A stretch of 64,000 bases of DNA, taken from Polyangiales bacterium (GTDB taxonomy: Bacteria; Myxococcota_A; Polyangia; Polyangiales; Polyangiaceae). Where the stretch lies: positions 224,001 to 288,000 of the forward strand of contig JBBRLQ010000004.1 in the NCBI GenBank assembly GCA_038231275.1, written 5' to 3'. The notes beneath the pieces are model-generated. The model searched no databases, was not told the DNA's origin, and saw nothing but the letters and a program-made list of their open reading frames with translations. Positions 32,981 through 50,422 of this stretch are shown in pieces (positions within the stretch are counted from its first letter, which is position 1; each line of letters opens with the position of its first letter). A program made the translations under genes and the position numbers.

Positions 32981-33007
32981 ATTTTGCGCGCGTCCGACCT
33001 TGAAGCG

Positions 33008-35107: not shown

Positions 35108-35163
35108 GGAGTTCCTCCGTGCGAGACGGGACGAGAAGCGGCGGTCTCGCCTAAACTATCAGA

Positions 35164-37344
35164 TCAGGGGCGGCCTGGCGCGGCGGTGAAGGCGAAGGTC
35201 GTGTTCGGCGCGAGGGCGGCGCGCAACGTGACGCGACGACCGTGGATCTCCGTCGCGCCGCATGACGCGCACGTGAAGCTCTTGAGCGCGTCGCCGAACT
35301 CGAGCGTGAGATCGGTCACTGCGAACGCGCCGGTCTTGAGCGAGCCCGCGTAGCCGCCCGCTGCCGTGTAGGTCGCGTCGAGCTGCACGCCCTCGCGCGC
35401 GCGCCAGAACGCGCCGAGGTCGCCCATCGTCAGGTTCGTGCGGACGCCGCGCTTGGTGGTCGCCTCGAGGAATTTGTCGGCGACGTGGAGCTTGTTCTTC
35501 AGGTTGTCGGGCCCGACGCCGCGCCCATAGGACGGGTGGAGCAGCGCGGTGGTGAACGCAAAATTGTCGGCGTTGCGGAGCACAGCGTACGACCACAGCG
35601 AGATGAACTTCGCGGCGTTGTTGGCCTGCATCTCGACGCGTGTGTCCACCCCCTCCACGACGGTGCCGAGCCCGTCCTCGATCGCGATGGGGAATGTGTA
35701 GAGTGCACGTTGATGGAACGTGTCGCGGCTGAGGCCGGTGCGCGCGAGGGAGATCGGTAGGTTGAATTTGTAGTCGCCGACGGCGAAGCTCGAGTCCGCG
35801 ACAAAGCCCTCCGACTCGAGCACGTCGTAGAGCGACGGGTGGACGTAGAGGTAGGGGCTCCGCCACGCGATCGGCTTCGCGCCAGTCTCCTTCTCGATGA
35901 GCTCGCTCGAGACGCGAATTTCGCCGCACAGGCTCGTCGCGCGCTCCGGCACGTACGTGGCGTAGGTCTCCTGGCAGGTGCCCTGCGGCTGCTTGCTGAA
36001 CGTGTCGGCGTGACGGACCGAGTGCGCGCCGAGCGGGCACATCCCCAGGTCGCAGAGGGAGTGGAGCGTGTCGGGCGTGTAGTAGCCGGATACATAGTCC
36101 GTGGTGATCAGGAACGTGCCGCGCGCGCCGTGAGCGCGCTCGAGCTCGGCGACCTGTTGCGCGCCAGGCTCTCCCCACGTGCCGTTTTTTTGGGCGTCGG
36201 GGGCGTCGACGTCGTGCGTGAGCAGCATCACCGAGTCGTCGGGACCGGGCGCGGGGTGCTTGAGGACGAGGTGACCTCGGGCCCCTTCGCGCATCGCCTC
36301 GCGCAAGAAGAGCCCGATGAGATCGCCGGAGGGCTCGAAGCAGTTCACGTAGCAGCGGTAGTGGCCGAAGGTGTGGAGATCGTGGCCGAGCGCGTAGACG
36401 GCCCCCTGCCCCACCTGCCGCCGCGTGACCATGGCGCCGGCGGGGGCGCCCCTTACGATCGCGTGGGCGACGACGGTGGTGCTGGCGCTCGACGGCTCCA
36501 TCACGTAGCCCTCAACCGGGTTCTTCGCCTGATCGTTCGAGAGGGGGACGCTGCGCTCTTCGGGGCTGTCGAAGGCGCGGGCAGCGACGGCGAGCGCTCC
36601 GTCGAACGCCAGCGCGTCGATGTCGAGCCGCCGTTCGCTGCGCGTGATCCCCGCGATGGCGAGGAGGTTCGTGCCGGCGTCGACGACGGGCTTGGTCAGG
36701 ACCACGACGCCGCCGCCGGTCGCGAACGCCTCGAGCGCGCTCCGCTGGGCGTCGTCGATCACGCTACCGAGGAGGTACCCGGGGACGACGACGAGCGCGT
36801 ACGAGGAGAGGCCCGCGAACGCGCCGCTCCAATCGGTGCGCGGCGCTGGGCGATCGTAGGGGACGCCCCACTGCTCGAGGACCGACGCGATGGTGTCGAC
36901 CTCCTCCGGCCCATCGTCCCAGATGTAGTTCGGCACGAGGAGAAGCGCGCGCGGGTGCGTGTCGACCGCCGCGACATCGTCGATGGCGCCGTTGCAGTCG
37001 TTGTCGACGCCGTCCAAGACCTCGGGAGCCGGGCCCGGCGCCATGCACACACGCGCGCCTCCCTGGCATGCGGCGTGCGCGGATCCGCACGCAGGCGCGG
37101 CGCCCACGCACGCGTTCGCGTCGACAGGCATGAGGACGTCGACGAGGCCGTCGCAGTCGTTGTCGATGCCGTCGCATCGCGTCTCGACGTCTTCTCGATC
37201 GGGAGAGTCGGCCGCGAGCGCGCACGGCGCGGCGGGAGGCGTCGTCGCCGGCGTCGCTCCGGCGCCCGGGTTGACGGTGCACGACGCCGAGACCGCGACC
37301 ACGCCGAGGAGCGCCGCTGCGCGACCACGCGACAGGAGGGCCAT
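35164..37344 (-). CDS. Lipoprotein polysaccharide deacetylase (NodB/CE4-like) with CDGxDNDCxG motifs
   Basis: Start re-assigned to 37344; lipobox SAS-C; CDGIDNDCDG and DGVDNDCNG; glutamine-amidotransferase-like middle domain; THDVD, HSVRH, RSPY, DSS, LLHP motifs. Confidence 0.8.
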   Translation of the reverse strand: MALLSRGRAAALLGVVAVSASCTVNPGAGATPATTPPAAPCALAADSPDREDVETRCDGIDNDCDGLVDVLMPVDANACVGAAPACGSAHAACQGGARVCMAPGPAPEVLDGVDNDCNGAIDDVAAVDTHPRALLLVPNYIWDDGPEEVDTIASVLEQWGVPYDRPAPRTDWSGAFAGLSSYALVVVPGYLLGSVIDDAQRSALEAFATGGGVVVLTKPVVDAGTNLLAIAGITRSERRLDIDALAFDGALAVAARAFDSPEERSVPLSNDQAKNPVEGYVMEPSSASTTVVAHAIVRGAPAGAMVTRRQVGQGAVYALGHDLHTFGHYRCYVNCFEPSGDLIGLFLREAMREGARGHLVLKHPAPGPDDSVMLLTHDVDAPDAQKNGTWGEPGAQQVAELERAHGARGTFLITTDYVSGYYTPDTLHSLCDLGMCPLGAHSVRHADTFSKQPQGTCQETYATYVPERATSLCGEIRVSSELIEKETGAKPIAWRSPYLYVHPSLYDVLESEGFVADSSFAVGDYKFNLPISLARTGLSRDTFHQRALYTFPIAIEDGLGTVVEGVDTRVEMQANNAAKFISLWSYAVLRNADNFAFTTALLHPSYGRGVGPDNLKNKLHVADKFLEATTKRGVRTNLTMGDLGAFWRAREGVQLDATYTAAGGYAGSLKTGAFAVTDLTLEFGDALKSFTCASCGATEIHGRRVTLRAALAPNTTFAFTAAPGRP

Positions 37345-37391
37345 TGGAACACGATAGCAGGCGCCCCGCGCGCGTGGTGTAGCGTAGCGGA

Positions 37392-39563
37392 ATGGTCCGC
37401 CGCGCCGCGCTCGTCCTCGCGCTCGCCGTGGCGTGCACGGGCACGAACGCCCCGCGATCGACCGTCCCCACCACGCCCGCCGCGCCGAAGGTTGCCGCAC
37501 CGTCTCCCACCACGCCCGCGCCCGATCCGCTCACGGTGCGCGACGGCGATCGCATGGTCGAGGTCGCCTGCAACGGACTCGATGACGACGACGACGGCCT
37601 CGTCGACGTGCTCGTCCCCTCCTCCGTCAACGCGTGCCGCACGGATCGTCCGGGGCCGTGCGGCACGGGGCACGCGGCGTGCGTCGCCGGTCTTCGCGCG
37701 TGCATGACGCCGCCGCCGATGCCCGAGGTTCGTGACGGGATCGACAACGACTGCAACGGCGTCGTGGACGACGTGCGGTCCGAGCCGCAGCATCCCCGCG
37801 CGCTCGTCGTCGCGCCGCGCTACGCGTGGACGGACGCGGCGCCCGACGTCGCCAACGTGACCGCGGCGCTCGCCCAGGCCGGAATTCCCTTCGAGAAGCA
37901 GAGCGCCGGCACCGAGTGGGACGCTGCGCTCGCGACGCTCGACGGGTACTCGCTCGCCGTCGTCCCCGGCTACCTCATCGGCGCGACGATCTCCAAGACG
38001 GCGCGGGCCGCGCTCGAGCGCTTCGTCACGCGGGGCGGCGTCTTGGTCGTGTGGAAGCCGCTGGGCAAGCCGGAGCAAATGCAGGCGTGGGATCTCTGCG
38101 GCCTCGCGAGCGGCGTGCGGCGTCGCGACGTTACCGAGCTGCGCGTCGAGGGGGCGTCGGCGCTGACGGTGGATCTCGATCGACCGGAGGAGAGGACGCT
38201 GCGCATCAACGAGAAGCCCGGGCCGAATGGCGTCGAGGTGTGGGCATTCGAGCCGCGTCCGGGAACCGAGGTCCTGCTCCGTGCATACGCGGGCGACAAG
38301 GCGGTGGGGGCCGCGGTGACGCGACGCGCGCTCGGCCGAGGCGCCGTGTACGCGATCGGGCACGACCTCGCGACGTTCGACGCCCCTCGGTGCTACGTGA
38401 ACTGCTTCGAGCCGGCGGGCGACGTGATGCGAATGGCGCTCGAGGGGGTGTTCCGTGAGAGCGCCGCGGGCCACGTCGTCCTCGCGCACACCGCGCCCGG
38501 CGAAGCGTCGTCGGTGCTGCTGGTCACGCACGATCTCGACGCACCCGACGCGCAGAACGCAGGCGAATGGGGGGACCCTGGCGCGATCCAGGCGGCGCAC
38601 GTTCTCCGAGGCCACGGCGCGCGGGCGACCTTCAACGTGACGACCGACGCCCGCGCCGGGACCTTCAACGCCGAGACGCTGAAGCAGCTCTGCGCGCTGG
38701 GCATGTGCCCCCTCGGCGCGCGTGGGGTCGGGCGACCCTCGACCTTCGCGACGCTCCCGATGGGGACATGCAACGAGACGCGCGCGACGTACGGCGCCGC
38801 AGCAACGCTCTGCGGCGAGGTCCGCGTCTCCCTGCAGCTCCTCGCCGAGGTCACGGGCGAACGGCCACGCGTGTGGCGCTCCCCCTTCCTCGCGATCCAT
38901 CCGAAGCAGTACGACGTTCTCGCGCAAGCAGGCGTCCTCTACGACTCGGGACACGCCGTTGGTGACCTGCCGCACAACCTGCCGCTCGATCTCGCGGCGG
39001 TCGGGGTGCACCAGGACCGGTTCCATCACAGGCCCATCCTCGAATTTCCGATCGCGCTCCAGGACGGGCTCGACGTCGTCGAGGAGGGCAAGCGCCGCCA
39101 CCTCGACCTGGGCGCGTCGAACGAGCACATGTTCGCCTCGCGTTGGGACTACGTGCTCTTGGCGAACGCCGAGAACCGCGCGGTCACCACGCTGTCGTTG
39201 AGGCCGTCGCGCGGGGGAGACGCAGGCGACGACGCGATGAGGGCCAAGATGACGGCGCTCGATCGCATCCTCACGCGCGCCGCGTCGACCGGCGCGGCCG
39301 TCGTCTCGATGGATCGCATGGGAGATTTCTGGCGCGCGCGCCTCGACAGCAGGATCGACGCCACGTGGGAGGGCGCCGCCTACAAGGGGTCGATCCTCGC
39401 GGGAAAGGCCACCGCGCCGGGCGTGACGTTGGAGTTCGGCGACGAGATCGCCGCGTTCTCGTGCCCGGAGTGCCGGGGTGACGCGCGCGTCGTCGGCAAG
39501 CGCGTCGTCCTCCCGCCCCTCGAGGCGGGCCGACGCGTCGAGTTCACGGCACGGACGCGGTAG
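37392..39563 (+). CDS. Paralogous deacetylase-like lipoprotein with degenerate active site
   Basis: Colinear with its divergent neighbour (RCYVNCFEP, HDLDAPDAQ, LGMCPLGA, LCGE.RVS) but HSVRH is replaced by RGVGR and LLHP by SLRP. Confidence 0.8.
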   Translation: MVRRAALVLALAVACTGTNAPRSTVPTTPAAPKVAAPSPTTPAPDPLTVRDGDRMVEVACNGLDDDDDGLVDVLVPSSVNACRTDRPGPCGTGHAACVAGLRACMTPPPMPEVRDGIDNDCNGVVDDVRSEPQHPRALVVAPRYAWTDAAPDVANVTAALAQAGIPFEKQSAGTEWDAALATLDGYSLAVVPGYLIGATISKTARAALERFVTRGGVLVVWKPLGKPEQMQAWDLCGLASGVRRRDVTELRVEGASALTVDLDRPEERTLRINEKPGPNGVEVWAFEPRPGTEVLLRAYAGDKAVGAAVTRRALGRGAVYAIGHDLATFDAPRCYVNCFEPAGDVMRMALEGVFRESAAGHVVLAHTAPGEASSVLLVTHDLDAPDAQNAGEWGDPGAIQAAHVLRGHGARATFNVTTDARAGTFNAETLKQLCALGMCPLGARGVGRPSTFATLPMGTCNETRATYGAAATLCGEVRVSLQLLAEVTGERPRVWRSPFLAIHPKQYDVLAQAGVLYDSGHAVGDLPHNLPLDLAAVGVHQDRFHHRPILEFPIALQDGLDVVEEGKRRHLDLGASNEHMFASRWDYVLLANAENRAVTTLSLRPSRGGDAGDDAMRAKMTALDRILTRAASTGAAVVSMDRMGDFWRARLDSRIDATWEGAAYKGSILAGKATAPGVTLEFGDEIAAFSCPECRGDARVVGKRVVLPPLEAGRRVEFTARTR

Positions 39564-40806
39564 CCCAGAGCGTCGAGCGATCCCTCGGGCGGGCGAGCTC
39601 GAAGCGCACGAGCTCGACCCAGGCGGTCCCTGCGATGCTCGGGCCGGTGTCGAAGAGGTACGGGACCTCGAGCGTCGCGGTGGGCAGCGCTCCCTGCGCG
39701 TCGCGAAGCGGCTCGAGCGCGTCGAGGATCGCGGCGGCGCGCTCTGCGTGCCCGAGGCGCCACGCGGCAAGCGCGACGCCGGCGCTCCCCTCTGGCCACA
39801 CCGCCTCGAGGTGCTCCCAGGTCTGCGCCGGGAGGCTGCGCGAGAAGCGCGCCATGAGCAGCGTGTCCTCCAGGACCGGACCGCGTGCTTGTGCGCGGTG
39901 CCCGCTCACGGCCAGACGCGCGAAGCGCGTGGCGTACTCCTCGTCTGCCGAACGGTACGCGACCTCGGCACGCTTCGCGTCGCCGTTCGCGACGAGGAAG
40001 AGCGCGCCCCACGACGCGCAGTCGAGCGCGCGGAGATCGTCGCGCTCGCCGCCAGGGCCGGCGCCGCGCGCGAGCTGGCCGAGGTCTGCCCGCCACGCGC
40101 GCGTGAGGCCCTCGGCGATGCGAACCGCCCCCCGCGCGTACGCGTCGGTGCCGGTCACCCGCGCCAATGCGCGGAGAAAGAAGTACGCGTCGATGTTGTG
40201 CTCCGTCGACACCCACGCGATCGGACCGACGCGCAGACGCTCCGTCACTCGGCCACCGTCGAGCTCATAGACGAGGACGCCGGAGCCACCGGTCACGAGG
40301 CCGTCGCGCGCGTCTCCCGCCACGTCGACCTGCCGCGATAAGAGGTAGCTCGCCGCGCGGTGGGCGAGGCGGAGGGCGTCCGCGCGTGCATCGCCGCCTG
40401 GCTCCGCGTCGAGATATTCGGTCGCGGCATAGCCGACCCACGCGACCGCGCCCGCGCGGACGTAGGCGCGCGCGGACTCGACGTCGCCTCCCGCGAACGA
40501 GAACGGCAGCGCGCCGTCCTCACCTTGCAGCGACGCGAGGCCGCGCAGTACGCTCCCGGCGCGCCCGCGCTGCCCGTGCCGCAGGAGAACGAGGGCTACG
40601 AGCGCGCTGTCGTAGACGGCGAAGCGCTGGCGCGTCGCATCCGTCAGCGCGAGCTCGCCAGATCCACGCGGCGACGAACGGAGCGTGCGTACGAGGTACT
40701 CCGTCGGCGTCGACGTCACGAGCGCGGGCGCGCGCGGGCGCGATGGCTCGGTGGTCGCGCCGCACGCGAGGAGAAGCGACAGCCCGAGGGCCGCCGCGCG
40801 GCTCAT
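39544..40806 (-). CDS. Six-hairpin (alpha/alpha)6 glycosidase-like lipoprotein
   Basis: Start re-assigned to 40806 (ATGA overlap); lipobox LLA-C; YDSAL, GAVAW, STEHNIDAY, LDCASWG, VWPEGSA, SIAGTAW. Confidence 0.6.
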   Translation of the reverse strand: MSRAAALGLSLLLACGATTEPSRPRAPALVTSTPTEYLVRTLRSSPRGSGELALTDATRQRFAVYDSALVALVLLRHGQRGRAGSVLRGLASLQGEDGALPFSFAGGDVESARAYVRAGAVAWVGYAATEYLDAEPGGDARADALRLAHRAASYLLSRQVDVAGDARDGLVTGGSGVLVYELDGGRVTERLRVGPIAWVSTEHNIDAYFFLRALARVTGTDAYARGAVRIAEGLTRAWRADLGQLARGAGPGGERDDLRALDCASWGALFLVANGDAKRAEVAYRSADEEYATRFARLAVSGHRAQARGPVLEDTLLMARFSRSLPAQTWEHLEAVWPEGSAGVALAAWRLGHAERAAAILDALEPLRDAQGALPTATLEVPYLFDTGPSIAGTAWVELVRFELARPRDRSTLWATASVP

Positions 40807-43800
40807 CGTACGGTCCGGAGCATCGAGCGGCGCGCCGCGTCGCGGACCCCGGAGTCTGGATCGCTCAGGAGCTGGTTCAGGCGCGCGCGCACCGCTGCGT
40901 CGTCTACCGACGCGAGTACCGAGACGGCGGCGGTCCGCACGTCCGGCGATGGATCGGCGAGCGCAGGGGCGACGTGCACATGAAAGCCTGGCGCGGCGAG
41001 CGCGCCGAGCGCGACCACCGTGACGCGCCGTGACGCGGGATCGGCGCCCGACGTGAGGTGCTGCGCCAGGCGCGCCGATGCCGCCGACGCGCGCGGCTCT
41101 GCGCGTAGGGCGATCCGCGTCTCCAGCGTCGCGTGACCCCACGCGCGTCCGAACGCCGCGAGCCCCTTGGCGTCCGCCTTCCCGACGAGCGACGCGAGCG
41201 CGGCGGCGCGCACGGTGGGCGACGCGTCCTCCAGCATCGCCTCGAGCACACCCATGGCGGCGTCCGTCAGCGGGCCGCTCGCCCGATCGATCGCGGCGGC
41301 CGCGCGCGCGCGCACCGCCGCCGACGGGTCTCGCCGCAGCGGCGCGGTCCGGACCAGCGCGTCGTTCGTCCATGCCATCGCGTCGAGCACCGCCGCGCGC
41401 ACGTCCTCGCTGGGATCCTGCGCCATCTCGTCGACCAGCGCGGCCGCGTCGGGGGTCGCCAGCGCCCCGACCGCGCGCACCGTCGCCGCACGAACCGACG
41501 CTGCCGTCGAACGCGCCAGCTCGCGCAGGAGCGGCAGTGTCTGCGGATGCGCCATCCGCCCCAGCACGCGGACCGCCGGGGTCAGGAGCTCCGGCACGTC
41601 GACGCCCATCATCGAGTCGACGAACGGGCCCGGATCGTCGCGGTGCATCTCCGCGAGGGCGTGCTCCACGACCTCTTGCACCTCGGGCGCCCCGGCGCCG
41701 AGCCGCCTCGCGAGCGCCACCGCGACGTCTGGCTCCCTCCGCTCCACGAGCGCGCGCGCAGCGAGGACGGCGACCTCGGGGTTCGGATCGGCCACCGCGC
41801 GCGCGAGCGCCTTGCGCGCGAGGGCCTCATCGACCCGCGTGCGGAGCGCCTCGGCCGCGTGGAGCCTCACCGCGTCGCTCGGATCGCCCGCGAGCGCGAT
41901 CGCGAGGGCGTCCAGGCCGCGATCGGTCCGGAGGCGTCGCAACGCGGCGACCGCGACCTTGCGTGACTCGACCTCGAGGCTCGTCCGAAGCACATGCTCG
42001 TACTGCTCCGCGAGCGCCGCGGCGTTGCGCGGCGACTCGTTACCTGCGCCGGGATCCTCGATGCGGAGCATCGCGAAGAACGCTGCCCGCACAGGAGGAT
42101 CCTCACGCTCCAAAAATGCGAGGGTCTCCGCGAGGACGCCGTCGACCGCGATGGCGTCGAGCACACGGGCCAGCGAGGCTTCGGTCCCGACGAGCGCGGA
42201 GGCGACGAGGTGCGCCGCGCGGGATGCGCGCGCGCCGAGCTCGCGCACGCGCGCATCTACCGTCTCCTTGCCCATGCGCGCGAGCGCCACCAACGCGCGG
42301 TTTCGCACGAAGGCGTCGGGATCCGTCACGCGCGCCGCGAGGATGTCGAGCACGCGTTCGTCCCTCTCGCCGCGCGCGAGCGCGTTCACCACCGCGGCGC
42401 GGACGCGACCGTCGGGATCCTCGGTGACGCCGCGGAGGGCCGTGACGGCGGCCGGCGCAGAGATCTTCCCAAGCGCACCCGCCGCGGACGCGCGCAGCGA
42501 CGCGTCCTCGGACACCAAGAAGCGCGCGAGCGTCGGCACCGCGCGAGGATCCCCTGTCTTGCCGAGGGTCCACGTGATGCCGAGACGGACGTCGATCGAC
42601 GCGCTCCTCTCCAGCTCGTCGAGGCGCGCGAAGAGCAGCTCCTGCGCGCCGCGTGAGAGCGCCTCGGCGATGCGATCGCGCACTTCGGGGAGCGCGCCGC
42701 CGAGCGCGCGCAAGAGGCCCTCGAACGCCTCCGTGCTCGTCGCCGATCCGAGCGCCGTCACCGACGCCATTCGGACCTCGATGGAAGCGTCGGTGAGGCA
42801 CCCGACGAGCGCCTGCACGGTCCCCTCCCCCGCCCGACCGCCCAGGCCGGTGACCGCCCGCAGGCGCACGGTGTCGCTGGGGTCGGTCGACGCGCGGACG
42901 AGCAGGCCGTCGCCCGGCGCGCCGTCGATACGCGAGGCCAAGGTCACGACGTGCATCCGCGTAGGCACGCTGCCGTTCTCGTACGCGGCAAGGAGCGCGT
43001 CGGTGAACGGCGCCAGATCGCCGGCGGAGAGATTCGTCAGCGCTTCCACGGCCGCCTCCCTCACCGGCTCCTCGTCGTCGCGCAGACGTCCCACGAGCGC
43101 AGACGCCGACGCCGCGTCCGCGAGCTTCCCGAGCGCCTCGCAGACCGCCGCGCGCACCGGCCACGATTCGTCGAGGGCCGCGCCGAGGAGCAGCGGTCCG
43201 ACGCGCGCCGCGCGCAGCTCCCCGCACGCCCTCGCGGCCACCGCCCGGACCTCGAACCGTGCATGATGCAGGTACGACGCGACGCTGTCGACGAGGCCCA
43301 CGCGCCCGAGCTCCAGCAGGGCCGCCTCCGCGCGTTGCCGGACGTCGTGCGCCTCCGCCGTGAGCTCCCCGATGACCCGATCGAGGTACCCCACGCGCTC
43401 CAGCGCGAGCCCCGCGCGCCTCCGCACCTCCGCGTTCGGATCGCGCAGCGCCGCTTCGAGGGGCGACGTGTCGTGGATCCGCATCGTCTCGAACGCCTCG
43501 AGGGCGCGCAGGCGCGTCCCGTAGTCCGGGTCGGCGAGCGCGGCGATGAGCACGTCGATCGCGCGCTCCCCTTCGATCCGCGCGACCGCCGCCGCGGCGT
43601 GCGCGCGCACTTGCGGGGCTGGATCGCGGAGCGTCGCGCGCACGAGCGGCTGGAGGGCACGCCCATCGCCGATGGCCTCGAGCGCCTCGGCGGCAGCCAT
43701 TCGCAGCAAATCGTCGCGATCGTAGAGGCGCGCGACGAGATCGTCCGTCGCGCGGGCGTCGCCGATGCGGCCTAGAACACGCGCAGCCCACACGCGCGCC

Positions 43801-44438
43801 GGCGGGTGCGACGGAGCCACGAGCAACTCGAGGAGGGCCGGCACAGCCAGCGCACCGAACGCGACGAGCGCCTCCGCGACATTGCGCGACGAGCGCTCGT
43901 CGTTCCTCTCCAGCTCGCTCACGAGGAGCGGGATCGCGCTCGCGTCGCGCAAGCGCGCCAGCGCCGCCGCCGCCGCCACTTTGACCGACGCGTCGTCCTC
44001 GTGACGATCGCGGAGCGCGGCGACCAGCGCGGCGACCGCCGACGACGCCGCCGCGAGGCCGAGGATCTCCGCCGCGTGCGTGCGCTCGCTCCATTTGGAC
44101 GCCTCGCGAACGCGCACGGAGTACACCTCGACCAGCCCGAGCTCCGAGAAGAGCCGGCCACCCCACGCGCGCGCGGCGAGGTCGTCGCCGCGGAGGAGCA
44201 TGAGCACGGCGCGCTCGAGCGTGAGCACGTCGAAGCGTTCTTTGAGCGTCGCCATGAGCGGACCGATCGGCGCATCCCGAGCGTCCCCCAGCTGCCGCTG
44301 CGCCTCGGTCACCGCCGCGAGAGCGCGTCGCGCCCACGCGCGCCGGAGCACCTCGCGTATCAGCACCCACACCGCGGGCACGACCGTCGCGACCACGAGG
44401 GCGACGGTCATGACGAGCGCCCAAGGCAGCGTGCTCAC
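40803..44438 (-). CDS. 1211-aa HEAT/PBS-lyase repeat protein with N-terminal TM helix
   Basis: N-terminal hydrophobic segment followed by roughly 30 L.D.D..VR..A..ALG-type repeats. Confidence 0.9.
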   Translation of the reverse strand: MSTLPWALVMTVALVVATVVPAVWVLIREVLRRAWARRALAAVTEAQRQLGDARDAPIGPLMATLKERFDVLTLERAVLMLLRGDDLAARAWGGRLFSELGLVEVYSVRVREASKWSERTHAAEILGLAAASSAVAALVAALRDRHEDDASVKVAAAAALARLRDASAIPLLVSELERNDERSSRNVAEALVAFGALAVPALLELLVAPSHPPARVWAARVLGRIGDARATDDLVARLYDRDDLLRMAAAEALEAIGDGRALQPLVRATLRDPAPQVRAHAAAAVARIEGERAIDVLIAALADPDYGTRLRALEAFETMRIHDTSPLEAALRDPNAEVRRRAGLALERVGYLDRVIGELTAEAHDVRQRAEAALLELGRVGLVDSVASYLHHARFEVRAVAARACGELRAARVGPLLLGAALDESWPVRAAVCEALGKLADAASASALVGRLRDDEEPVREAAVEALTNLSAGDLAPFTDALLAAYENGSVPTRMHVVTLASRIDGAPGDGLLVRASTDPSDTVRLRAVTGLGGRAGEGTVQALVGCLTDASIEVRMASVTALGSATSTEAFEGLLRALGGALPEVRDRIAEALSRGAQELLFARLDELERSASIDVRLGITWTLGKTGDPRAVPTLARFLVSEDASLRASAAGALGKISAPAAVTALRGVTEDPDGRVRAAVVNALARGERDERVLDILAARVTDPDAFVRNRALVALARMGKETVDARVRELGARASRAAHLVASALVGTEASLARVLDAIAVDGVLAETLAFLEREDPPVRAAFFAMLRIEDPGAGNESPRNAAALAEQYEHVLRTSLEVESRKVAVAALRRLRTDRGLDALAIALAGDPSDAVRLHAAEALRTRVDEALARKALARAVADPNPEVAVLAARALVERREPDVAVALARRLGAGAPEVQEVVEHALAEMHRDDPGPFVDSMMGVDVPELLTPAVRVLGRMAHPQTLPLLRELARSTAASVRAATVRAVGALATPDAAALVDEMAQDPSEDVRAAVLDAMAWTNDALVRTAPLRRDPSAAVRARAAAAIDRASGPLTDAAMGVLEAMLEDASPTVRAAALASLVGKADAKGLAAFGRAWGHATLETRIALRAEPRASAASARLAQHLTSGADPASRRVTVVALGALAAPGFHVHVAPALADPSPDVRTAAVSVLASVDDAAVRARLNQLLSDPDSGVRDAARRSMLRTVR

Positions 44439-44809
44439 CCGCCCCCGAGGAGCTTCGTGATCGTCTGGACGACGAGCGCAGGATCGGCCGGCTTGTTCAA
44501 GAACTCGCTCGCGCCGGACTGGAATGCCCAGAAGCGATCGGCCGCCTCGGTCTTGCCGGTCAGGATGATGATCGGGATCTTCGGCGCGATGCGCTTGATC
44601 GCTCGACAGGCCTGGTAGCCGTTCAGCTCCGGCATGGTCACGTCGAGGACCACGATGTCCGGCGGGTCGCGCTCGACCGCCGCGATCGCGAGCTCACCGT
44701 CGCGCGCGATCGTGGTGCGATGGCCGAGGGCTTTGAGGCGCACCTCGAGCGGCTCGAGGCCCTTCGGGTGGTCGTCCACGAGGAGCACGTGCGCCGATTT
44801 CACGCTCAT
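44435..44809 (-). CDS. Single-domain response regulator
   Basis: LLVDD, VLDVTMPELNG, LTGK, NKP intact; start re-assigned to 44809 (ATGA overlap). Confidence 0.92.
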   Translation of the reverse strand: MSVKSAHVLLVDDHPKGLEPLEVRLKALGHRTTIARDGELAIAAVERDPPDIVVLDVTMPELNGYQACRAIKRIAPKIPIIILTGKTEAADRFWAFQSGASEFLNKPADPALVVQTITKLLGGG

Positions 44810-46230
44810 CGGCTGCCCCTGGAAGAGGGCGGCGCGCCTGCGCGCTCGGAGATGGGCCCGAGATCGATGACGGGAACGGCGCCGTGCGGGACGATGACGA
44901 CGGCGGCGCACTTCGCCAGCGCTTCCACCACCGAGTCCCGCCGCAGATCGAAGCGCCACCCCGTCCCGTCGTCCCTCTTGTGCAGGGCGTCGACGATTCG
45001 CTGCGCCGCCGCCGCGTCGTCGACGAGGACGAAGCTCCGACCTTCGCGGCTGCGCATGTCGGTCGGTAGCGTGACGACGACCGACGCGCCGGCACCAGGC
45101 GCGTCCTCCACGCGCACGCTTCCTTTGTGCTCGGCCATGATCTCGCGGACGACGGCCAGCCCGATGCCGCTCCCCGGCACGTCGCGATCACGCTCGAGGC
45201 GGGCGCCGCGCACGAAGACGCGCTCGCGCTCCGCGAGGGGGATTCCCGGTCCGGTGTCCTCCACGACGAGCTCGACGTTGCGCCGCGCGTCCGTGCCCTG
45301 ATCGCCGCGCCCTTCGGCGGCGCGGAGGTGCACCGCGACGTGACCGTCCACCGGCGCGAATTTCAAGGCGTTGACGACGAGGTTCGTCACGACCTGCTTG
45401 ATCTTGAGGGGATCGCACCACGCGGTGAGCCCGTCGTCGACGTCGAGCGTCACGGCGATCCGCTTCTGCTCGGCGACGTTGTCGAAGAGGCCGACTGTGC
45501 CACGCACGAGCTCGCCGAGGTTGCACAAAATGCGTCGTGCGGGCCCGCGCGCTCTGCCGTCTCCGCGCGAGGGCGGCGCGTCGGTCGTGGCGCGCACCAC
45601 TCCGGAGAATCGCTCGAGCAGGCTCACGAGATCGTCCGTGGCCTGGAGGATCTGCGCGACGTGCACGCGTTGCTCGTCCTCGAGCGGGCCGACGATCTCG
45701 TCGCGCAAGTTGGCGGCGTAGCCCACGATGATGCCGCAGAGCACACGCGCGTCGTGGGCCATCGACCGCGTCTCGGTGCCGACCGTGTCGAGGCGCGCGC
45801 CGGTCGCCCGCAGACGATCTTCCAGATCGCGCGCGCGCGCCGCCACCCCTGCGGCGTCGCGCCCGCGATCGAGCGCCGCCTGCGTTGCGACGAACAGCTC
45901 GCTGCCCTCGTTCGAAGGAGTCGCGATCGCCGCGGGCCCGAGCGCCGAGACGCGCGACGCGACGACACCGGCGGCCACCGACACCACGAGCGGCAGGCGC
46001 GCCGTCCGCTCGTCGCGCCGGAGCGCCGCCGACAGCGCGAGGAAGCGCTCGGGCTCGTCGCCGGCATCCAGAACGACGGCGTCGATCCCCGGCGCGCTCA
46101 GCGTCGCGAGATCGTCCACGTTGACGACGCAGCTCTCCGCGCTCGCGCCCGCGGCACGCAAGGACTCTGCGCAGCGCTCGGCGGCGATCGCGTCGATCCC
46201 CACGACCACCAGGAGCCCGTCGTCCGTCAT
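44806..46230 (-). CDS. Cytoplasmic histidine kinase with degenerate receiver-like N-terminus
   Basis: H-box MAHDAR, NLVVNALKF, VEDTGPGI, GSGIGLA; no TM helix; start re-assigned to 46230. Confidence 0.88.
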   Translation of the reverse strand: MTDDGLLVVVGIDAIAAERCAESLRAAGASAESCVVNVDDLATLSAPGIDAVVLDAGDEPERFLALSAALRRDERTARLPLVVSVAAGVVASRVSALGPAAIATPSNEGSELFVATQAALDRGRDAAGVAARARDLEDRLRATGARLDTVGTETRSMAHDARVLCGIIVGYAANLRDEIVGPLEDEQRVHVAQILQATDDLVSLLERFSGVVRATTDAPPSRGDGRARGPARRILCNLGELVRGTVGLFDNVAEQKRIAVTLDVDDGLTAWCDPLKIKQVVTNLVVNALKFAPVDGHVAVHLRAAEGRGDQGTDARRNVELVVEDTGPGIPLAERERVFVRGARLERDRDVPGSGIGLAVVREIMAEHKGSVRVEDAPGAGASVVVTLPTDMRSREGRSFVLVDDAAAAQRIVDALHKRDDGTGWRFDLRRDSVVEALAKCAAVVIVPHGAVPVIDLGPISERAGAPPSSRGSR

Positions 46231-47747
46231 CCTGTCGGTCTCGGCGCGAAGCCCTTCCGCGCGAATTTGTCCCAGCCCTGCTTCCCCTTCATGAAGTCCC
46301 AGAGCCCGCGGAGCTGCCACCCCATCAGATACTGCCGATACCCCAAGTTCGACAAAAATCCGGTGAACAAGAGGATGAGCACGTCACTCAAGCGTTCGTA
46401 TTTGAAGAGCGAGAGCCCCGCCACCGCCGCCCGGGTGCCGCGCTCGGTCGTGATGCAGAGGAGGACCGACAGCGTGCTCAAGAGGAGGTTGATGCCCATC
46501 GCGAGGGCCAGGAACGTCAGGAGCGCTTTCACGGACAGGATGCCCAGCGCCAACGTCAGGAGGAATACGACGTACCCGGCGCACTCGAGCACGGGCGCCA
46601 GCGCCTCGAAGAGGAGCTGGTACGGCAACGAGAAGAGCCCGACCTGCCGAAAGCGCGGGTTGAACATCATCACGCGGTGGTAGCTGAGCACCTCGAGCAG
46701 CCCGCGGTACCAGCGCGAGCGCTGCTTGCCGATGTCGGTGTAGTTCTCGGGTGCCTCGGTCCACGCGGTCGGAAACGGGAGGATCGAAATCTTTCCAGGA
46801 AGCTTCTTGTCGAGCAGGTACCGGTGGAGGCGGACGACGATCTCCATGTCCTCGCACACCGTGTGGACGCCTTGGCCGCAATACTCGATGCCGATCTTCG
46901 ACTGCATCGTCTTGGTCAGAAATCCGCCGATCGACAGGACCAGATCGCGTCGCATCAAGGCGAACACGCCCGAAAGAACGAGCAGCGACCGCAGCGCCGC
47001 GAACGCCATGCGCCCCTGCGCGAACGAACGCATGTACTCGACGATCTGGAAGCGCCCGATCCAGGTCTTCGGCAAGCGCATCTCGACGACGCGCCCGTCT
47101 TCCACGACGGAGCCGTTGGAGATCCCGACCTGCACACCGACCGCCACGACCTCCTCGCGATCGTCGACGATCGGCCGCGCGGCGAGGAGGAGCGCGTCGG
47201 GCGTGAGGAGGCTGTCGGCGTCCATGCTCGTGACGTAGTCCCCGCGCGCGACGTTGATGCACGCGTTGAGAGCGTCGGCCTTCCCGCCGTTCTCCTTGTC
47301 GATGAGGACGAGGCGCGTGAGCCCCGCCGGGAGCGGCCCGCGCACCTCGTAGAAGCTCCGGATGGGGGCCGTCACGAGCTGCTCGTCGTATTCGAGCTCG
47401 ACGCGCACGAAGTGGAACGCGCGTAAAAGCTCCCCGACCGTTTTGTCCTTCGAGCCGTCGTTGCAGACCACGATCTCGAACGACGGATACCGCAGCCGCA
47501 GCAGCGACCGGATGCTGTCGCAGATCGTGACCTCCTCGTTGTATGCGGGGACGAGGAGCGTCACGTGCGGAAGGAAGCGATCGTGCTCACGCGCGAGCGC
47601 AGGGCGTACGTGCTCGTTCGCCAGGACGTCCCCAATCCGCCGCGCGCTCAAGAGGCTGAACACGATGTTGATGAGGAAGAACACCAGCACGTAGGCCAGG
47701 ACGAAGGCGTCCAAGGCCCATAAAATGGCTGTGACGAGCTGCACCAC
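46227..47747 (-). CDS. Processive GT2 glycosyltransferase (PgaC/IcaA/chitin-synthase-like polysaccharide synthase)
   Basis: PAYNEE, DGSKD, ENGGKADALN, DADS, EDME, TEAPE, QRSRW and flanking TM helices; GTG start at 47747 or 47744. Confidence 0.92.
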   Translation of the reverse strand: MVQLVTAILWALDAFVLAYVLVFFLINIVFSLLSARRIGDVLANEHVRPALAREHDRFLPHVTLLVPAYNEEVTICDSIRSLLRLRYPSFEIVVCNDGSKDKTVGELLRAFHFVRVELEYDEQLVTAPIRSFYEVRGPLPAGLTRLVLIDKENGGKADALNACINVARGDYVTSMDADSLLTPDALLLAARPIVDDREEVVAVGVQVGISNGSVVEDGRVVEMRLPKTWIGRFQIVEYMRSFAQGRMAFAALRSLLVLSGVFALMRRDLVLSIGGFLTKTMQSKIGIEYCGQGVHTVCEDMEIVVRLHRYLLDKKLPGKISILPFPTAWTEAPENYTDIGKQRSRWYRGLLEVLSYHRVMMFNPRFRQVGLFSLPYQLLFEALAPVLECAGYVVFLLTLALGILSVKALLTFLALAMGINLLLSTLSVLLCITTERGTRAAVAGLSLFKYERLSDVLILLFTGFLSNLGYRQYLMGWQLRGLWDFMKGKQGWDKFARKGFAPRPTG

Positions 47748-47776
47748 GAGCGGGTCTGGCTCGAGAGTAGCGTAGA

Positions 47777-49135
47777 ATGGCGAGCAAGTTGGCGATCGCG
47801 ACGAATCGGCGGGCGACGCGCCTGGTGTGGGTCCTGGCACGACTCCTCGCGATCGCTGCGATCGGTGGCGTCGTGTCTTGGCCCGCAACCGCACGCGCGT
47901 CGGACTGCGCCGCGAGCCGTTACACGGCGGGAGCGACCACGCGCGACGCCGCGATCCTCGAGGCCGGGCAGCTCGCCGCGGCGGGGCGCTACGCCGATGC
48001 GCGCGCCGCCTACCTCGACCTCCTGAGCCGCAACGAGGACGACTCCGAGGCGCTCTACGGGCTCGCGCGCGTCGACGCGTGGCAAGGATGCGCCATGCTC
48101 GCGGAGAGCGAGTACACGCGGGTCCTCGTCGCGCACCCGAGGGACGCCGACGTGCGGGCCGGCCTCGTCGACCTCTTCGTGTGGAACGATCGCTACGACG
48201 AGGCGAGCCGCATGATCGACGAGGGCCTCGCTCTCGATCCGCGCTCACCTGCGCTGCTGGCGAGGAAGGCGCGCATGCTCGCGTGGAAGGGCGAGGCGGT
48301 GGAGGCCGCGCGCATGGCCGACGAGGCGGTGAGCCTGGCGCCGGACGACGGGGATCTCGCGGCGATGCGCGCCCGCATGTTCGTGGGGGAGGCGCGCGTC
48401 GCCGGGCGGTTGGATCTCTACCCGCCGGGCTACCAGGATCTCTACGCGCTCGGCGGTCAAGTCCTCGGGCGCGTGCGGCGCTTCGAGCTGTACGGAGGAA
48501 TCCAAGCGCTCGAACGCTACGGCGGCGCGACGTCGCGCCCGGTCCTCGACGCGCGTTATCCGTTCGGACTCCTCTACCATCCCGCGCTCGGCGTCACGCT
48601 CGGCGCCGAGATCGCGCCAGGCCTCCCCGCCAACGCGATCCCCGACGTCGCGATCAAGACCTTCGCGAACGTGCCGGTCGCGCACCGGACCTCGGCGTAC
48701 CTCGCGTACTCGTTCTGGCACTTCGGCGGCGGTGAGCTCGTGAACATCCTCAACCCGTCCGTCGAGGTGACGTTGCCGCGCGACGTTCGCGTGACCGTGC
48801 GCGGGTGGCTCTCCGCGGTGACGCTCCCCCGCCCTTCGCCGCAGACGGCGGACACGAAGATCGCCGGCGCGCTGGGACCGGCCGCGGCCTGGGACGTGAC
48901 GCCGCGCGTGACGGTCGGCGCTTGGTACACCTACGGGACCGAGCTCGATCAGAACCCCGCACTCTTCCAGCTCCTGGCGTTCCGCTCGCACCAGGTGGGC
49001 ACGTTCGGGGAGGTCTTGTTCAACCGCTTTCAGGGCGTTCGGCCGCTCGTTCAGGTCGCCCGACGCGAGGCGACGTCATCGGGCGTGTCCATTTGGACGA
49101 TCTCCTTCGAGCTCGGCGCGTGGCTGCGCTGGTGA
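47777..49135 (+). CDS. TPR + YaiO-like outer-membrane beta-barrel protein
   Basis: Signal peptide, about 4 TPRs (ALYGLARVDAWQG, VRAGLVDLFVWND), amphipathic strands, C-terminal ELGAWLRW beta-signal. Confidence 0.75.
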   Translation: MASKLAIATNRRATRLVWVLARLLAIAAIGGVVSWPATARASDCAASRYTAGATTRDAAILEAGQLAAAGRYADARAAYLDLLSRNEDDSEALYGLARVDAWQGCAMLAESEYTRVLVAHPRDADVRAGLVDLFVWNDRYDEASRMIDEGLALDPRSPALLARKARMLAWKGEAVEAARMADEAVSLAPDDGDLAAMRARMFVGEARVAGRLDLYPPGYQDLYALGGQVLGRVRRFELYGGIQALERYGGATSRPVLDARYPFGLLYHPALGVTLGAEIAPGLPANAIPDVAIKTFANVPVAHRTSAYLAYSFWHFGGGELVNILNPSVEVTLPRDVRVTVRGWLSAVTLPRPSPQTADTKIAGALGPAAAWDVTPRVTVGAWYTYGTELDQNPALFQLLAFRSHQVGTFGEVLFNRFQGVRPLVQVARREATSSGVSIWTISFELGAWLRW

Positions 49136-49180
49136 ATCGATTTCCCTAAAGGTGCCCCGATCGGAGCCGTTCGTGGGGTT

Positions 49181-49489
49181 GTGACGATCGCGAGCCATCC
49201 TCCGCGCACGCTCGACCGGGTCCTCGGAGATCTGACGGTGGCGCGGCGTGCGCTCGCCTCAGGCGACGGTCCGACGGGAGAGGCCGCGCTCGTCCGCGCC
49301 TTCGCGCAGCTCGGTACGGCGTACGCGCACCTCGGCGCCTGCGAGCGACCCGAGGTCACGGCGCGCCTCCAGGCGGTCTACGATCTCTGCACGCGCTACA
49401 TCGGCGCCGCGGGCGTCGGCGAGACGCGCGGCATCGACGCGGCGATCCGACTCCTCGCGCCCGTCCGCGACGCGCTCGGCGAAGTCTAG
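49181..49489 (+). CDS. FliS-like four-helix protein
   Basis: ARRALASGD...LVRA..QL..AYAHL...PEVTARLQAVYD.C..YI..A...IDAAIRLLAPVRDA follows the FliS pattern by eye. Confidence 0.5.
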   Translation: MTIASHPPRTLDRVLGDLTVARRALASGDGPTGEAALVRAFAQLGTAYAHLGACERPEVTARLQAVYDLCTRYIGAAGVGETRGIDAAIRLLAPVRDALGEV

Positions 49490-49528
49490 AGCACGTCTAG
49501 CTCACGACTCCGTTACGGCGACGGCCGT

Positions 49529-50422
49529 CTAGAAGTGCTGCTTCACGACGTCGAGCTTCTCGCTCTGCGGGAAGCTCAGCTTGCGCGTCGCCTTGTCGAT
49601 GCACGCGGCGACCTTGTTGTTGGTCGGCGTGATCTTCACCGACACACCCAGCACCTTGCCCGACTTCACCGCCGCGCAGATGTCCGCGTTCGCGCTGTCG
49701 GAGAGGCCGCAGCCCCCGAAGAAGGTGCTGTTCGCCATGGGCCTGCCGAGCTGATCTTTGGTCAGATCGGGCTTGCTGTTCTTCTTGCCCATGTCGATCG
49801 TCTGCGGGTTCTCGTCCATCGCCTTCTCGCAGCTCTTGCCCGTCGAGACGGCGATCTGGACGCTGAGCTCCTCGTGCGAGCCGCTCTTGGCGTCGTGATC
49901 GTAGATGGCGACGTGGATCTTGGTGCCCTCGTCGTTGATCTTGTCGAGATCCTCCCACGGGATGATCTTGTCGCCGGTGTAGCCGTGCTGGGTGTGAATC
50001 AGCGGAACCTCGACCGATTTGTTCCCCTTGCCGCGCGGGTACACGATGACGGCGTCGCGGTTCTTCACGTCGCTGCCGAGCGCGCCCATCTTCACCTCGT
50101 CGTCGGTGGCGTTGATGGTGATGCGAATGCCCTCTGGGAGCGTCTCGATCTTGATGGCGCCCGAGTAGTCGCCGTGCCCGCTGCCCGAGCACGGGACGAA
50201 CGTCTCGCTGCCGTCCTCGTCGTGGATGTCGTGGGCGTGGACCTTGTCCTTCTCGCCGCAGCTGTGCGGTGTCGGCCGCGCGACCTTCGCGATCGACTCG
50301 CCGTGGTGCTGGTCGTTGTCGGTCTTCGGTGTGGCCGGGCCGTCGGTGGCGGGCGTGCCGCCTCCACATGCCACCAGATACGAGAGCGCGCACGCCGAGG
50401 CGAGGATCGAGAGAGTTCGCAT
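49529..50422 (-). CDS. Hypothetical lipoprotein with AgmX/PglI-C (TonB-C-like) terminal domain
   Basis: Real start at ATG 50422, lipobox LVA-C; C-terminal VAACIDKATRKLSFP. Confidence 0.65.
   Translation of the reverse strand: MRTLSILASACALSYLVACGGGTPATDGPATPKTDNDQHHGESIAKVARPTPHSCGEKDKVHAHDIHDEDGSETFVPCSGSGHGDYSGAIKIETLPEGIRITINATDDEVKMGALGSDVKNRDAVIVYPRGKGNKSVEVPLIHTQHGYTGDKIIPWEDLDKINDEGTKIHVAIYDHDAKSGSHEELSVQIAVSTGKSCEKAMDENPQTIDMGKKNSKPDLTKDQLGRPMANSTFFGGCGLSDSANADICAAVKSGKVLGVSVKITPTNNKVAACIDKATRKLSFPQSEKLDVVKQHF

Follow-up and report, generated by a model that had tools for sequence, protein, structure and literature searches.

A candidate synthase-dependent exopolysaccharide system combining a receiver, a membrane HEAT-repeat protein and a family 2 glycosyltransferase in a Polyangiaceae genome

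A putative exopolysaccharide secretion locus

The gene cluster at positions 35164 to 49135 of a 64,000-nucleotide stretch of the Polyangiales bacterium (Polyangiaceae) assembly GCA_038231275.1 (contig JBBRLQ010000004.1, positions 224,001 to 288,000; this whole stretch is referred to below as the window) probably encodes a synthase-dependent exopolysaccharide secretion system of a kind that combines a receiver, a membrane HEAT-repeat protein, a processive family 2 glycosyltransferase (GT2) and a TPR/YaiO barrel. A transmembrane (TM)-anchored HEAT protein and a single receiver adjoin a GT2 that carries the QRxRW motif, a TPR-YaiO barrel gene lies next to them, and the same sets of genes recur across genomes and phyla. 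Within this reading the locus has three extras, namely a soluble kinase of its own, a HEAT protein of enlarged size and a pair of proteins that would modify the polymer in the periplasm, and it is apparently the myxobacterial, fully equipped version of an uncharacterised receiver-HEAT-GT2-YaiO secretion system. The initial annotation of this DNA had proposed an undescribed synthase-dependent exopolysaccharide system at this place; what it observed is confirmed here and its interpretation is supported, with one amendment that concerns the two deacetylase-type proteins.

Five genes on the minus strand make up the body of the cluster. The GT2 synthase (46227-47747, 506 aa, GTG start) has an N-terminal TM segment, a GT-A domain and a C-terminal TM bundle, and is followed by a soluble histidine kinase (44806-46230, 474 aa), a response regulator that consists of a single receiver domain without an output domain (44435-44809, 124 aa), a membrane-anchored HEAT-repeat protein in which an N-terminal TM helix precedes a HEAT solenoid (40803-44438, 1211 aa), and an exported, lipoprotein-like protein that belongs to no named family and is referred to as X420 (39544-40806, 420 aa). 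As had been annotated, the five genes are joined by 4-bp start/stop overlaps, which read ATGA at 46227-30, 44806-09 and 40803-06 and GTGA at 44435-38. Such overlaps are frequent in high-GC operons and are weak proof by themselves. A gene on the plus strand (47777-49135, 452 aa) diverges from the GT2 gene across a spacer of 29 bp (47748-47776), earlier given as about 30 bp, and encodes a protein with a signal peptide, TPR repeats and a C-terminal outer-membrane beta-barrel that is the probable export pore. At the opposite end two deacetylase-type genes adjoin X420. Paralogue B (37392-39563, plus strand, 723 aa) is convergent with X420, the 3' ends overlapping by 20 bp, and paralogue A (35164-37344, minus strand, about 726 aa) is divergent from paralogue B with 47 bp between them. 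Both have the same architecture, with a signal peptide ending in Cys, a MopE motif, a GATase1/GH42M-like domain and a CE4-type domain. X420 likewise starts with a signal peptide ending in Cys, and the lipobox of all three is loosely canonical; the label of lipoprotein is accordingly tentative for each of them.

Because the G+C content of the window is about 70%, it contains many spurious open reading frames (ORFs), and the real genes were fixed by codon-position GC, domain matches and homologues. The third-position GC content (GC3) of 0.85-0.90 backs the frames of the HEAT, kinase, TPR and both deacetylase-type genes. The stop-to-stop ORFs of the GT2, receiver and X420 fall below the filter of GC3 > 0.82, and these calls rest on domain matches and homologues. 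The start of paralogue A was set at 37344 because the signal peptide begins only at residue 53 of the longest ORF, which extends to 37500. Upstream of the GTG start of the GT2 the frame reads as an Arg/Pro-rich stretch. A consensus scan of 32800-49600 gave no signal, with one promoter-like site against 0.5 expected and three terminator-like sites against 4.8 expected, and found no promoter-like site in the 29-bp spacer between the GT2 and barrel genes.

Distribution and gene order in other genomes

The conservation of the cluster was assessed in 80 loci, the best 80 of 114 that were fetched from genome contigs through the X420 alignment (tblastn, E <= 1e-6). A GT2 gene is found in 46 of these, a deacetylase-type gene in 39, a receiver in 29, a kinase in 26, and a long HEAT gene and a barrel gene in 24 each. 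The 21 myxobacterial loci among them contain HEAT (20), receiver (18), GT2 (17) and kinase (16) genes, and in 13 of the 21 the order GT2-HK-RR-HEAT-X420 (HK, histidine kinase; RR, response regulator) is colinear. Thus, the cluster is conserved beyond what chance would give. The remaining 59 loci belong to other phyla and groups, including Acidobacteriota, Spirochaetota, Desulfobacterales, Gemmatimonadota and Nitrospinota. A deacetylase-type gene lies directly downstream of X420 in 29 of these 59, and deacetylase-type and GT2 genes occur together in 21. X420 and the deacetylase-type gene form a conserved, probably periplasmic, module. Crude ORF clustering reveals a recurring order in Acidobacteriota and others, namely barrel, short HEAT, GT2, X420 and deacetylase, often with a single receiver. 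That the genes keep company in other genomes, on which the initial annotation had staked its proposal, is therefore borne out.

Within the phylum, the cluster and its gene order recur in a genome of the same genus (G001). A genome from a different family of the same taxonomic order has the barrel, GT2, X420 and deacetylase-type genes; no kinase, receiver or long HEAT gene was found in it by tblastn, a 1.2-kb gap before its GT2 lying outside the examination. X420 occurs in 38 of 401 genomes sampled across the phylum, with a patchy distribution that includes 25 of 29 and 9 of 34 genomes in two other families. Elements of the core are also present in cultured bacteria. In its genes MESCI_RS31990-32020, plasmid pMESCI01 of Mesorhizobium ciceri bv. 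biserrulae WSM1271 carries, by its RefSeq annotation, a kinase, two response regulators, a "YaiO family barrel", a "HEAT repeat protein", a GT2 and an Hpt protein in succession, and the HEAT-GT2 pair is also found in Paenibacillus cellulosilyticus. The nearest records to the window proteins come from Myxococcales, Labilithrix and Polyangiaceae metagenome-assembled genomes (MAGs), and the host, an uncultured Polyangia-like myxobacterium, is not Myxococcus xanthus. The exopolysaccharide of M. xanthus is made by a Wzx/Wzy-dependent pathway, as had been annotated and as is stated in the accessible part of PMC7484181.

The synthase, its HEAT-repeat partner and the two-component pair

The GT2 protein matches Glycos_transf_2 in Pfam at 2.3e-23, together with related families and, weakly, a chitin-synthase family. 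The motifs NDGSKD (at 96), DAD (176-178), ED (299-300) and QRSRW (342-346) are all present, which agrees with the D,D,D,QxxRW set of processive synthases reported in the initial annotation. Across 28 aligned GT2s, D97, D176xD178, E299-D300 and Q342-R-x-R-W346 are invariant, and QRxRW is found in 41 of 41. Hydrophobic blocks with TM segments lie at both ends of the protein (residues 1-39 and 378-434). By this motif set and its flanking TM helices the protein is a processive synthase-type GT2.

The HEAT protein matches HEAT_2 at 2.1e-102 in 13 stretches and has a strong TM segment at residues 1-32. In other phyla its place beside the GT2 is taken by a short HEAT partner of about 350-430 aa, with an N-terminal TM segment in 11 of 12 and a HEAT_2 match in the three of three that were scanned. 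Because the profile of the short partner aligns colinearly with residues 22-345 of the window protein (hhalign, probability 99.9, E 3.5e-37), the 1211-aa protein can be understood as the short partner plus about 850 extra HEAT-repeat residues. In each of four Spirochaetota assemblies a GT2 of about 945 aa carries a HEAT module fused at its N-terminus. The module aligns with the profile of the short partner at probability 97.9 (E 3.3e-13) and with residues 1-412 of the window HEAT protein at probability 94.6. The fusions have one TM segment ahead of the HEAT part and two between it and the GT-A domain, a layout that would put the HEAT domain in the cytoplasm together with the GT2 catalytic domain. 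Positive residues after the TM segment of the window protein agree with such a placement, so that we infer a cytoplasmic HEAT domain. A complex prediction for the GT2, HEAT residues 1-370 and the receiver gave no answer (score 0.00, mark 0.32) and speaks neither for nor against binding. A further in-frame HEAT-GT2 ORF of 898 aa in an Acidobacteriota MAG (L086:12964-15660, minus strand) was not counted as a fusion. It is doubtful because in a close relative (L035) the two parts are separate genes that overlap by ATGA, and a 1-bp assembly error may explain the joined frame; to judge from its record name, the assembly is possibly a long-read one.

The kinase and receiver carry the residues of a two-component phosphotransfer pair. 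In the kinase, HATPase_c is matched at 1.1e-24 and HisKA at 1.1e-3, under its cut-off, with His159 as the H-box residue; Pfam and a TM scan gave no recognised sensor domain and no strong TM segment. The receiver matches Response_reg at 1.5e-25, and its D13, D56 and K106 do not vary among the 14 receivers aligned; judged by these residues it is phosphorylatable. Switching of the synthase by protein phosphorylation instead of cyclic di-GMP (c-di-GMP) seems to be the outcome, if phosphorylation has the role proposed for it here.

The probable periplasmic enzymes and the nature of the polymer

X420 has no match in Pfam or NCBIfam, and the sole match of its profile among Protein Data Bank (PDB) sequences is a gluconokinase at E 0.19. 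Its homologues number 236 in a 90%-identity collection, the 120 matches listed being without a Pfam family and named "hypothetical" at most, and 1278 clusters at E <= 1e-3 in a 50%-identity library. The AF2 (AlphaFold2) model is an (alpha/alpha)6 barrel (pLDDT 92.7, pTM 0.90). Its best structural match by VIA is MmpH (7qsj; Z 33.6, root-mean-square deviation (rmsd) 2.6, 311 aligned residues, 13% identity), and other matches include dextran dextrinase (Z 31.4), epimerases (Z about 29), PssZ, a hydrolase of Listeria exopolysaccharide (6r2m, Z 22.9), and the GH8 enzyme CelA (Z 22.5). Numerous acidic and aromatic residues are invariant in the X420 alignment, among them D66, E202, D206, D262 and E339. 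On this predicted fold X420 is a probable polymer-specific glycoside hydrolase, which fits the glycosidase of the initial annotation. In several proteins (P0133, P0149, P0141, P0142, P0148, P0168 and P0198) an X420-like domain is joined to other parts, namely exosortase EpsH with DUF3485 (EpsI), DUF3485 by itself or a Ser/Thr kinase, or is embedded in an RHS-repeat protein; through these fusions the fold is tied to PEP-CTERM/exosortase systems.

Paralogues A and B are 44% identical. Paralogue A matches MopE (7.1e-8), Polysacc_deac_1 (PF01522, 2.3e-4) and GH42M (3.4e-4) in Pfam; NCBIfam returned nothing for either protein. Taken alone, each window copy matches PF01522 below the cut-off, and two of three homologues scanned singly reach it. 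In an alignment of 35 deacetylase-type proteins (A2), PF01522 is matched by all 35 at E <= 0.1 and the GH42 trimerisation (GATase1-like) domain by 31, and the profile of this alignment matches a CE4 structure (PDB 3rxz) at 5e-6. A Cys-rich MopE metal-binding motif stands before the GATase1-like domain in eight of the 35, both window copies included. The family conserves H-D-x-D, H-x3-H, R and a late H, which we take to be the CE4 motifs. Paralogue A keeps all seven motif columns (H D D H H R H). Paralogue B reads H D D R R R R, with Arg at all three His columns, and so lacks the metal pair and catalytic His of CE4 enzymes; it is probably a non-catalytic pseudo-enzyme. The initial annotation of two deacetylase lipoproteins at this end thus stands as to their place beside X420 and their CE4-type domain, but only paralogue A keeps the catalytic His, and the pair is better read as one enzyme and one probable pseudo-enzyme.

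The AF2 model of paralogue B (pLDDT 85.2) matches CE4 enzymes over residues 367-653 with Z 20-25 by VIA, among them 3rxz (Z 24.7, rmsd 2.5, 242 aligned). As a whole chain it lies nearest to Agd3, PelA and human NDST1 by Foldseek (Agd3 6nwz, 2.4e-14; PelA 9cgy, 5.5e-11), and the VIA values are Z 17.5 for PelA (462 aligned, rmsd 6.7) and Z 16.8 for Agd3 (500 aligned, rmsd 8.5). All three of these enzymes remove N-acetyl groups from amino-sugar polymers that are secreted or extracellular. Agd3 6nwz is not among the matches of the A2 profile at E <= 1, and the likeness to CE18, with its CBM87 + CE18 build, is one of whole-chain fold only. The polymer is probably an N-acetylhexosamine chain, a reading drawn solely from the presence of a deacetylase, and would be beta-linked if the GT2 inverts like its kin.

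Alternatively, the polymer may not be an amino-sugar chain at all but, for example, a glucan, the CE4-type proteins removing O-acetyl groups or acting on peptidoglycan and X420 and the deacetylase forming a separate envelope-remodelling pair that travels with the synthase. This is unlikely, although several findings speak for it. CE4 superfamily matches at Z 17-23 include acetylxylan esterases, peptidoglycan deacetylases and non-carbohydrate enzymes; among the 59 non-myxobacterial loci a deacetylase-type gene occurs in 30, some of them without a GT2 within 10 kb; X420-like domains have also been joined to exosortase/EpsI, kinase and RHS proteins; and no sugar-nucleotide gene recurs in the gene maps of the clusters. 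However, the whole-chain fold of the deacetylase-type protein points to enzymes of amino-sugar polymers, translational coupling joins X420 to the HEAT gene here and in most myxobacterial loci the X420 gene is colinear with that of the synthase, and the relatives of the GT2 give weak chitin-synthase Pfam matches, with one homologue above the cut-off (45.8 bits against 27).

Relation of the synthase to known families

The best NCBIfam model for the GT2 is PgaC_IcaA (TIGR03937; 4e-28), and PgaC is likewise the nearest of three Escherichia coli K-12 synthases taken from its annotated record (23.6% identity over 377 aa, E 4e-20); BcsA shares 18.9% identity over 313 aa and NfrB gave no match. Together with a list of roles that parallels Pga (synthase, deacetylase, hydrolase and TPR porin), this might suggest a divergent pgaABCD-type operon for poly-beta-1,6-GlcNAc (PNAG), the parts of which have drifted past the family models. 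Such an origin is very improbable. The score of 98.5 bits for PgaC_IcaA is far below the cut-off of 422.3, and nothing in the whole genome exceeds that cut-off; the barrel protein scores 16.6 with the PgaA model (TIGR03939) against 366.65; and no window protein matches E. coli PgaA, PgaB or PgaD by BLASTP at E < 0.05, neither deacetylase-type paralogue showing the CE4 + GH153 make-up of PgaB. In addition, the HEAT partner, receiver, YaiO barrel and (alpha/alpha)6 protein have no Pga counterpart. More generally, no curated Pga, Bcs or NodC model of NCBIfam is reached by the proteins of the locus, no Pel family model fits, and no Pga, Bcs or Nfr accessory protein of E. coli is matched by window proteins in BLASTP. 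The CelA/BcsA model (TIGR03030) gives the GT2 35.4 bits against a cut-off of 699.1, with no PilZ match. Among PDB sequences only short N-terminal GT-A matches were obtained, with no BcsA, HAS, NodC or chitin synthase at E <= 1e-3.

The phylogeny of the synthase is in keeping with this separation. In a GT2 tree of 32 rows, made in a quick and a careful version, the three E. coli synthases stand apart from the 29 system-linked GT2s; their branches measure 4.8-7.6 changes per column, that of PgaC 4.8, and such long branches make the outgroup placement unsure. Twelve myxobacterial GT2s form a supported clade beside Desulfobacterales copies. The initial annotation had proposed a tree against PgaC, IcaA, NodC and chitin synthases; its PgaC part is answered in this way, and the tree is without IcaA, NodC and chitin synthase rows. 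The family itself is large, with at least 5238 proteins at E <= 1e-40, and the public names of its relatives are generic.

The probable outer-membrane barrel

Pfam recognises only TPR models in the barrel protein (TPR_19, 8.9e-12). Its YaiO-like character, which the initial annotation had made a test of its proposal, emerges from the family and from Atlas neighbours: eight of 23 members of the barrel family match YaiO (PF19413), the best at 3.8e-7, and 25 of the 30 Atlas clusters nearest to residues 205-452 are YaiO clusters, with a top score of 0.96. The Mesorhizobium counterpart bears the RefSeq name "YaiO family outer membrane beta-barrel protein". The BcsC model (NF008520) is scored at 18.4 against a cut-off of 858, and BLASTP gave no match to E. 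coli PgaA or NfrA. It is highly improbable that the GT2 product stays in the periplasm as a lipid- or protein-linked glycan with the barrel and flanking genes as unrelated neighbours, since genes of the barrel family neighbour those of the HEAT-GT2 pair across several phyla, as they do on plasmid pMESCI01, the GT2 has QRxRW and a C-terminal TM bundle as in channel-forming synthases, and periplasmic enzymes are linked to the GT2 across phyla, even though YaiO-type barrels are without a shown role in polysaccharide export and YaiO figures mostly as an E. coli PCR marker in the accessible parts of the papers listed.

Evidence weighing against a single secretion system

Several findings weigh against the interpretation of the locus as one receiver-HEAT-GT2-barrel secretion system with active periplasmic enzymes. 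The receiver is linked to the synthase by gene order alone. The window barrel protein itself has no PF19413 match at E <= 0.1, and paralogue A falls short of the PF01522 cut-off (21.5 against 23.1). The fold of X420 is common to epimerases, phosphorylases and terpene cyclases at similar Z, which leaves its hydrolase activity a prediction. The deacetylase-type copy adjacent to X420 is the degenerate one, and two of eight other myxobacterial copies are partly so, with one or two His lost. Of the myxobacterial loci only nine of 21 have a deacetylase-type gene and 11 of 21 a barrel gene, many contigs ending inside the cluster. Finally, few close relatives have the cluster: at E <= 1e-30 four of 41 related genomes, counting the one that holds the window, yielded the GT2, and X420 was found in none of the 29 other genomes from the same family.

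Proposed mechanism

The domain identities, motifs, predicted folds, gene order, co-occurrence and fusions described above allow a scheme to be proposed for the secretion system. How the proteins touch one another, what phosphorylation does, on which side of the membrane the HEAT domain lies, which reactions the enzymes catalyse and what the polymer is are all inferred in it. The kinase would phosphorylate the single-domain receiver at Asp56, and the phospho-receiver would then contact the inner-membrane complex of GT2 and HEAT protein, taking the place of the c-di-GMP receptors in Bcs, Pga, Alg and Pel. The GT2 would polymerise a nucleotide sugar and pass the chain across the inner membrane by a channel of its own. 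On the periplasmic side, paralogue A, with its intact CE4-type domain, would strip part of the acetyl groups, the degenerate paralogue B may only bind the chain or pass it on, and X420 would cleave or trim it. The TPR-YaiO protein would finally carry the chain over the outer membrane.

A wider proposal is put forward tentatively, as somewhat less likely than not. The locus would belong to a phylum-spanning class in which a phospho-receiver, acting through a membrane HEAT subunit in place of c-di-GMP, gates the GT2, and in which a small YaiO-type barrel is the porin. X420 and the GATase1-CE4 protein, with its Agd3/PelA-like build, would represent two new families of carbohydrate-active enzymes, and a dead paralogue would have been recruited in this lineage as a polymer-binding subunit.

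Neighbouring genes and other locus types

Genes on either side of the cluster were considered as parts of the system. Downstream of paralogue A by 56 bp, on the same strand, lies a 699-aa PilZ-Hsp70 (DnaK-like) fusion (33008-35107, minus strand), the PilZ part of which keeps RxxxR (residues 8-12) and DxSxxG (residues 36-41). It was rejected as a component, with a match in one of the 80 loci, away from the cluster. Beyond the barrel gene, a GH35/GH42-like gene (50449-53025, minus strand) has exo-beta-D-glucosaminidase as its best NCBIfam model, at 129 bits far under the cut-off of 1500. It too was rejected, being found in none of the 80 loci; a glucosaminidase-like neighbour beside a possible chitosan-like system is suggestive. 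Between the barrel and GH35-like genes are a 102-aa ORF (49181-49489, plus strand) with a FliS match below the cut-off (E 2.6e-4) and a 298-aa ORF (49497-50393, minus strand) with a signal peptide and Cys and no Pfam family.

The survey of loci also brought other arrangements to light. A second locus type, in Nitrospinaceae, Lindowbacteria and Elusimicrobia MAGs (L036, L050, L055, L062, L065 and L077), has the order GT2, CBM30-like, TPR, a protein of 300 aa, exosortase and X420. In four Spirochaetota loci (L047, L051, L059 and L076) a protein of about 672 aa with ODP (di-iron), GGDEF and receiver parts lies directly upstream of the HEAT-GT2 fusion, and X420 and the deacetylase-type gene come after the fusion; the 672-aa protein seems to be an alternative input module to the same machinery. 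In six loci (L022, L023, L026, L027, L028 and L031) a member of a family of about 377 aa (F9) has a deacetylase-type, GT2 or barrel gene as its neighbour. The one member scanned has no Pfam match, and with no copy in the window the family was rejected as part of the window system.

Significance and comparison with known systems

To our knowledge, the well-studied synthase-dependent systems (cellulose, PNAG, alginate and Pel) are all gated by c-di-GMP. Phosphorelay gating through a HEAT subunit, if true, would add a new principle to the control of biofilm matrix production. The X420 and deacetylase-type families, named in neither Pfam nor NCBIfam, would be candidates for new CAZy families and for matrix-dispersing enzymes. 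A cultured carrier of the core, Mesorhizobium ciceri WSM1271 with pMESCI01, makes the question testable. In the literature searched, subscription-only papers and supplements aside, there is no published description of a receiver-HEAT-GT2 system and no paper that joins synthase-dependent secretion to YaiO, or to HEAT-repeat plus glycosyltransferase exopolysaccharide systems; as far as this literature reaches, the system is undescribed, as the initial annotation had supposed.

The likeness to Pga/Ica lies in a processive GT2 with a small membrane partner, in probable periplasmic CE4-type deacetylase and glycoside hydrolase activities and in a TPR-barrel porin. The components differ, however, and all family models are missed widely. 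The partner here is a TM-anchored HEAT solenoid instead of PgaD, the deacetylase is GATase1-like plus CE4 without a sequence match to PgaB, the hydrolase is a separate (alpha/alpha)6 protein instead of a GH153 domain, the barrel is YaiO-like, and a kinase and receiver stand in place of c-di-GMP control. The Pel system (PelA-G) and the fungal galactosaminogalactan cluster (Agd3) resemble the locus in the deacetylase-type protein over its whole chain and in a TPR-barrel exporter. In contrast to them, the synthase here is a GT2, not the GT4 protein PelF or Gtb3, no GH114, GH166 or GH135 hydrolase is present, and Agd3 is beyond the sequence reach of the A2 profile at E <= 1. Bacterial operons with Agd3 homologues, as described in the accessible part of PMC7229062, contain a cytoplasmic glycosyltransferase, a multi-spanning membrane protein and GH114, unlike the gene set of this locus.

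The cellulose system BcsABZC shares with the locus a QxxRW GT2, a periplasmic (alpha/alpha)6 enzyme (BcsZ, GH8) and a TPR-barrel exporter (BcsC), but the GT2 here is without a PilZ domain, there is no BcsB, and X420 has no sequence match to BcsZ. A close parallel in gene content is provided by the short-HEAT cassettes of other phyla. Compared with these, the HEAT protein of the locus is 1211 aa long instead of about 350-430, the gene for a soluble kinase of its own separates those of the GT2 and the receiver, translational coupling ties X420 to the HEAT gene, and there are two deacetylase-type paralogues, one of them degenerate.

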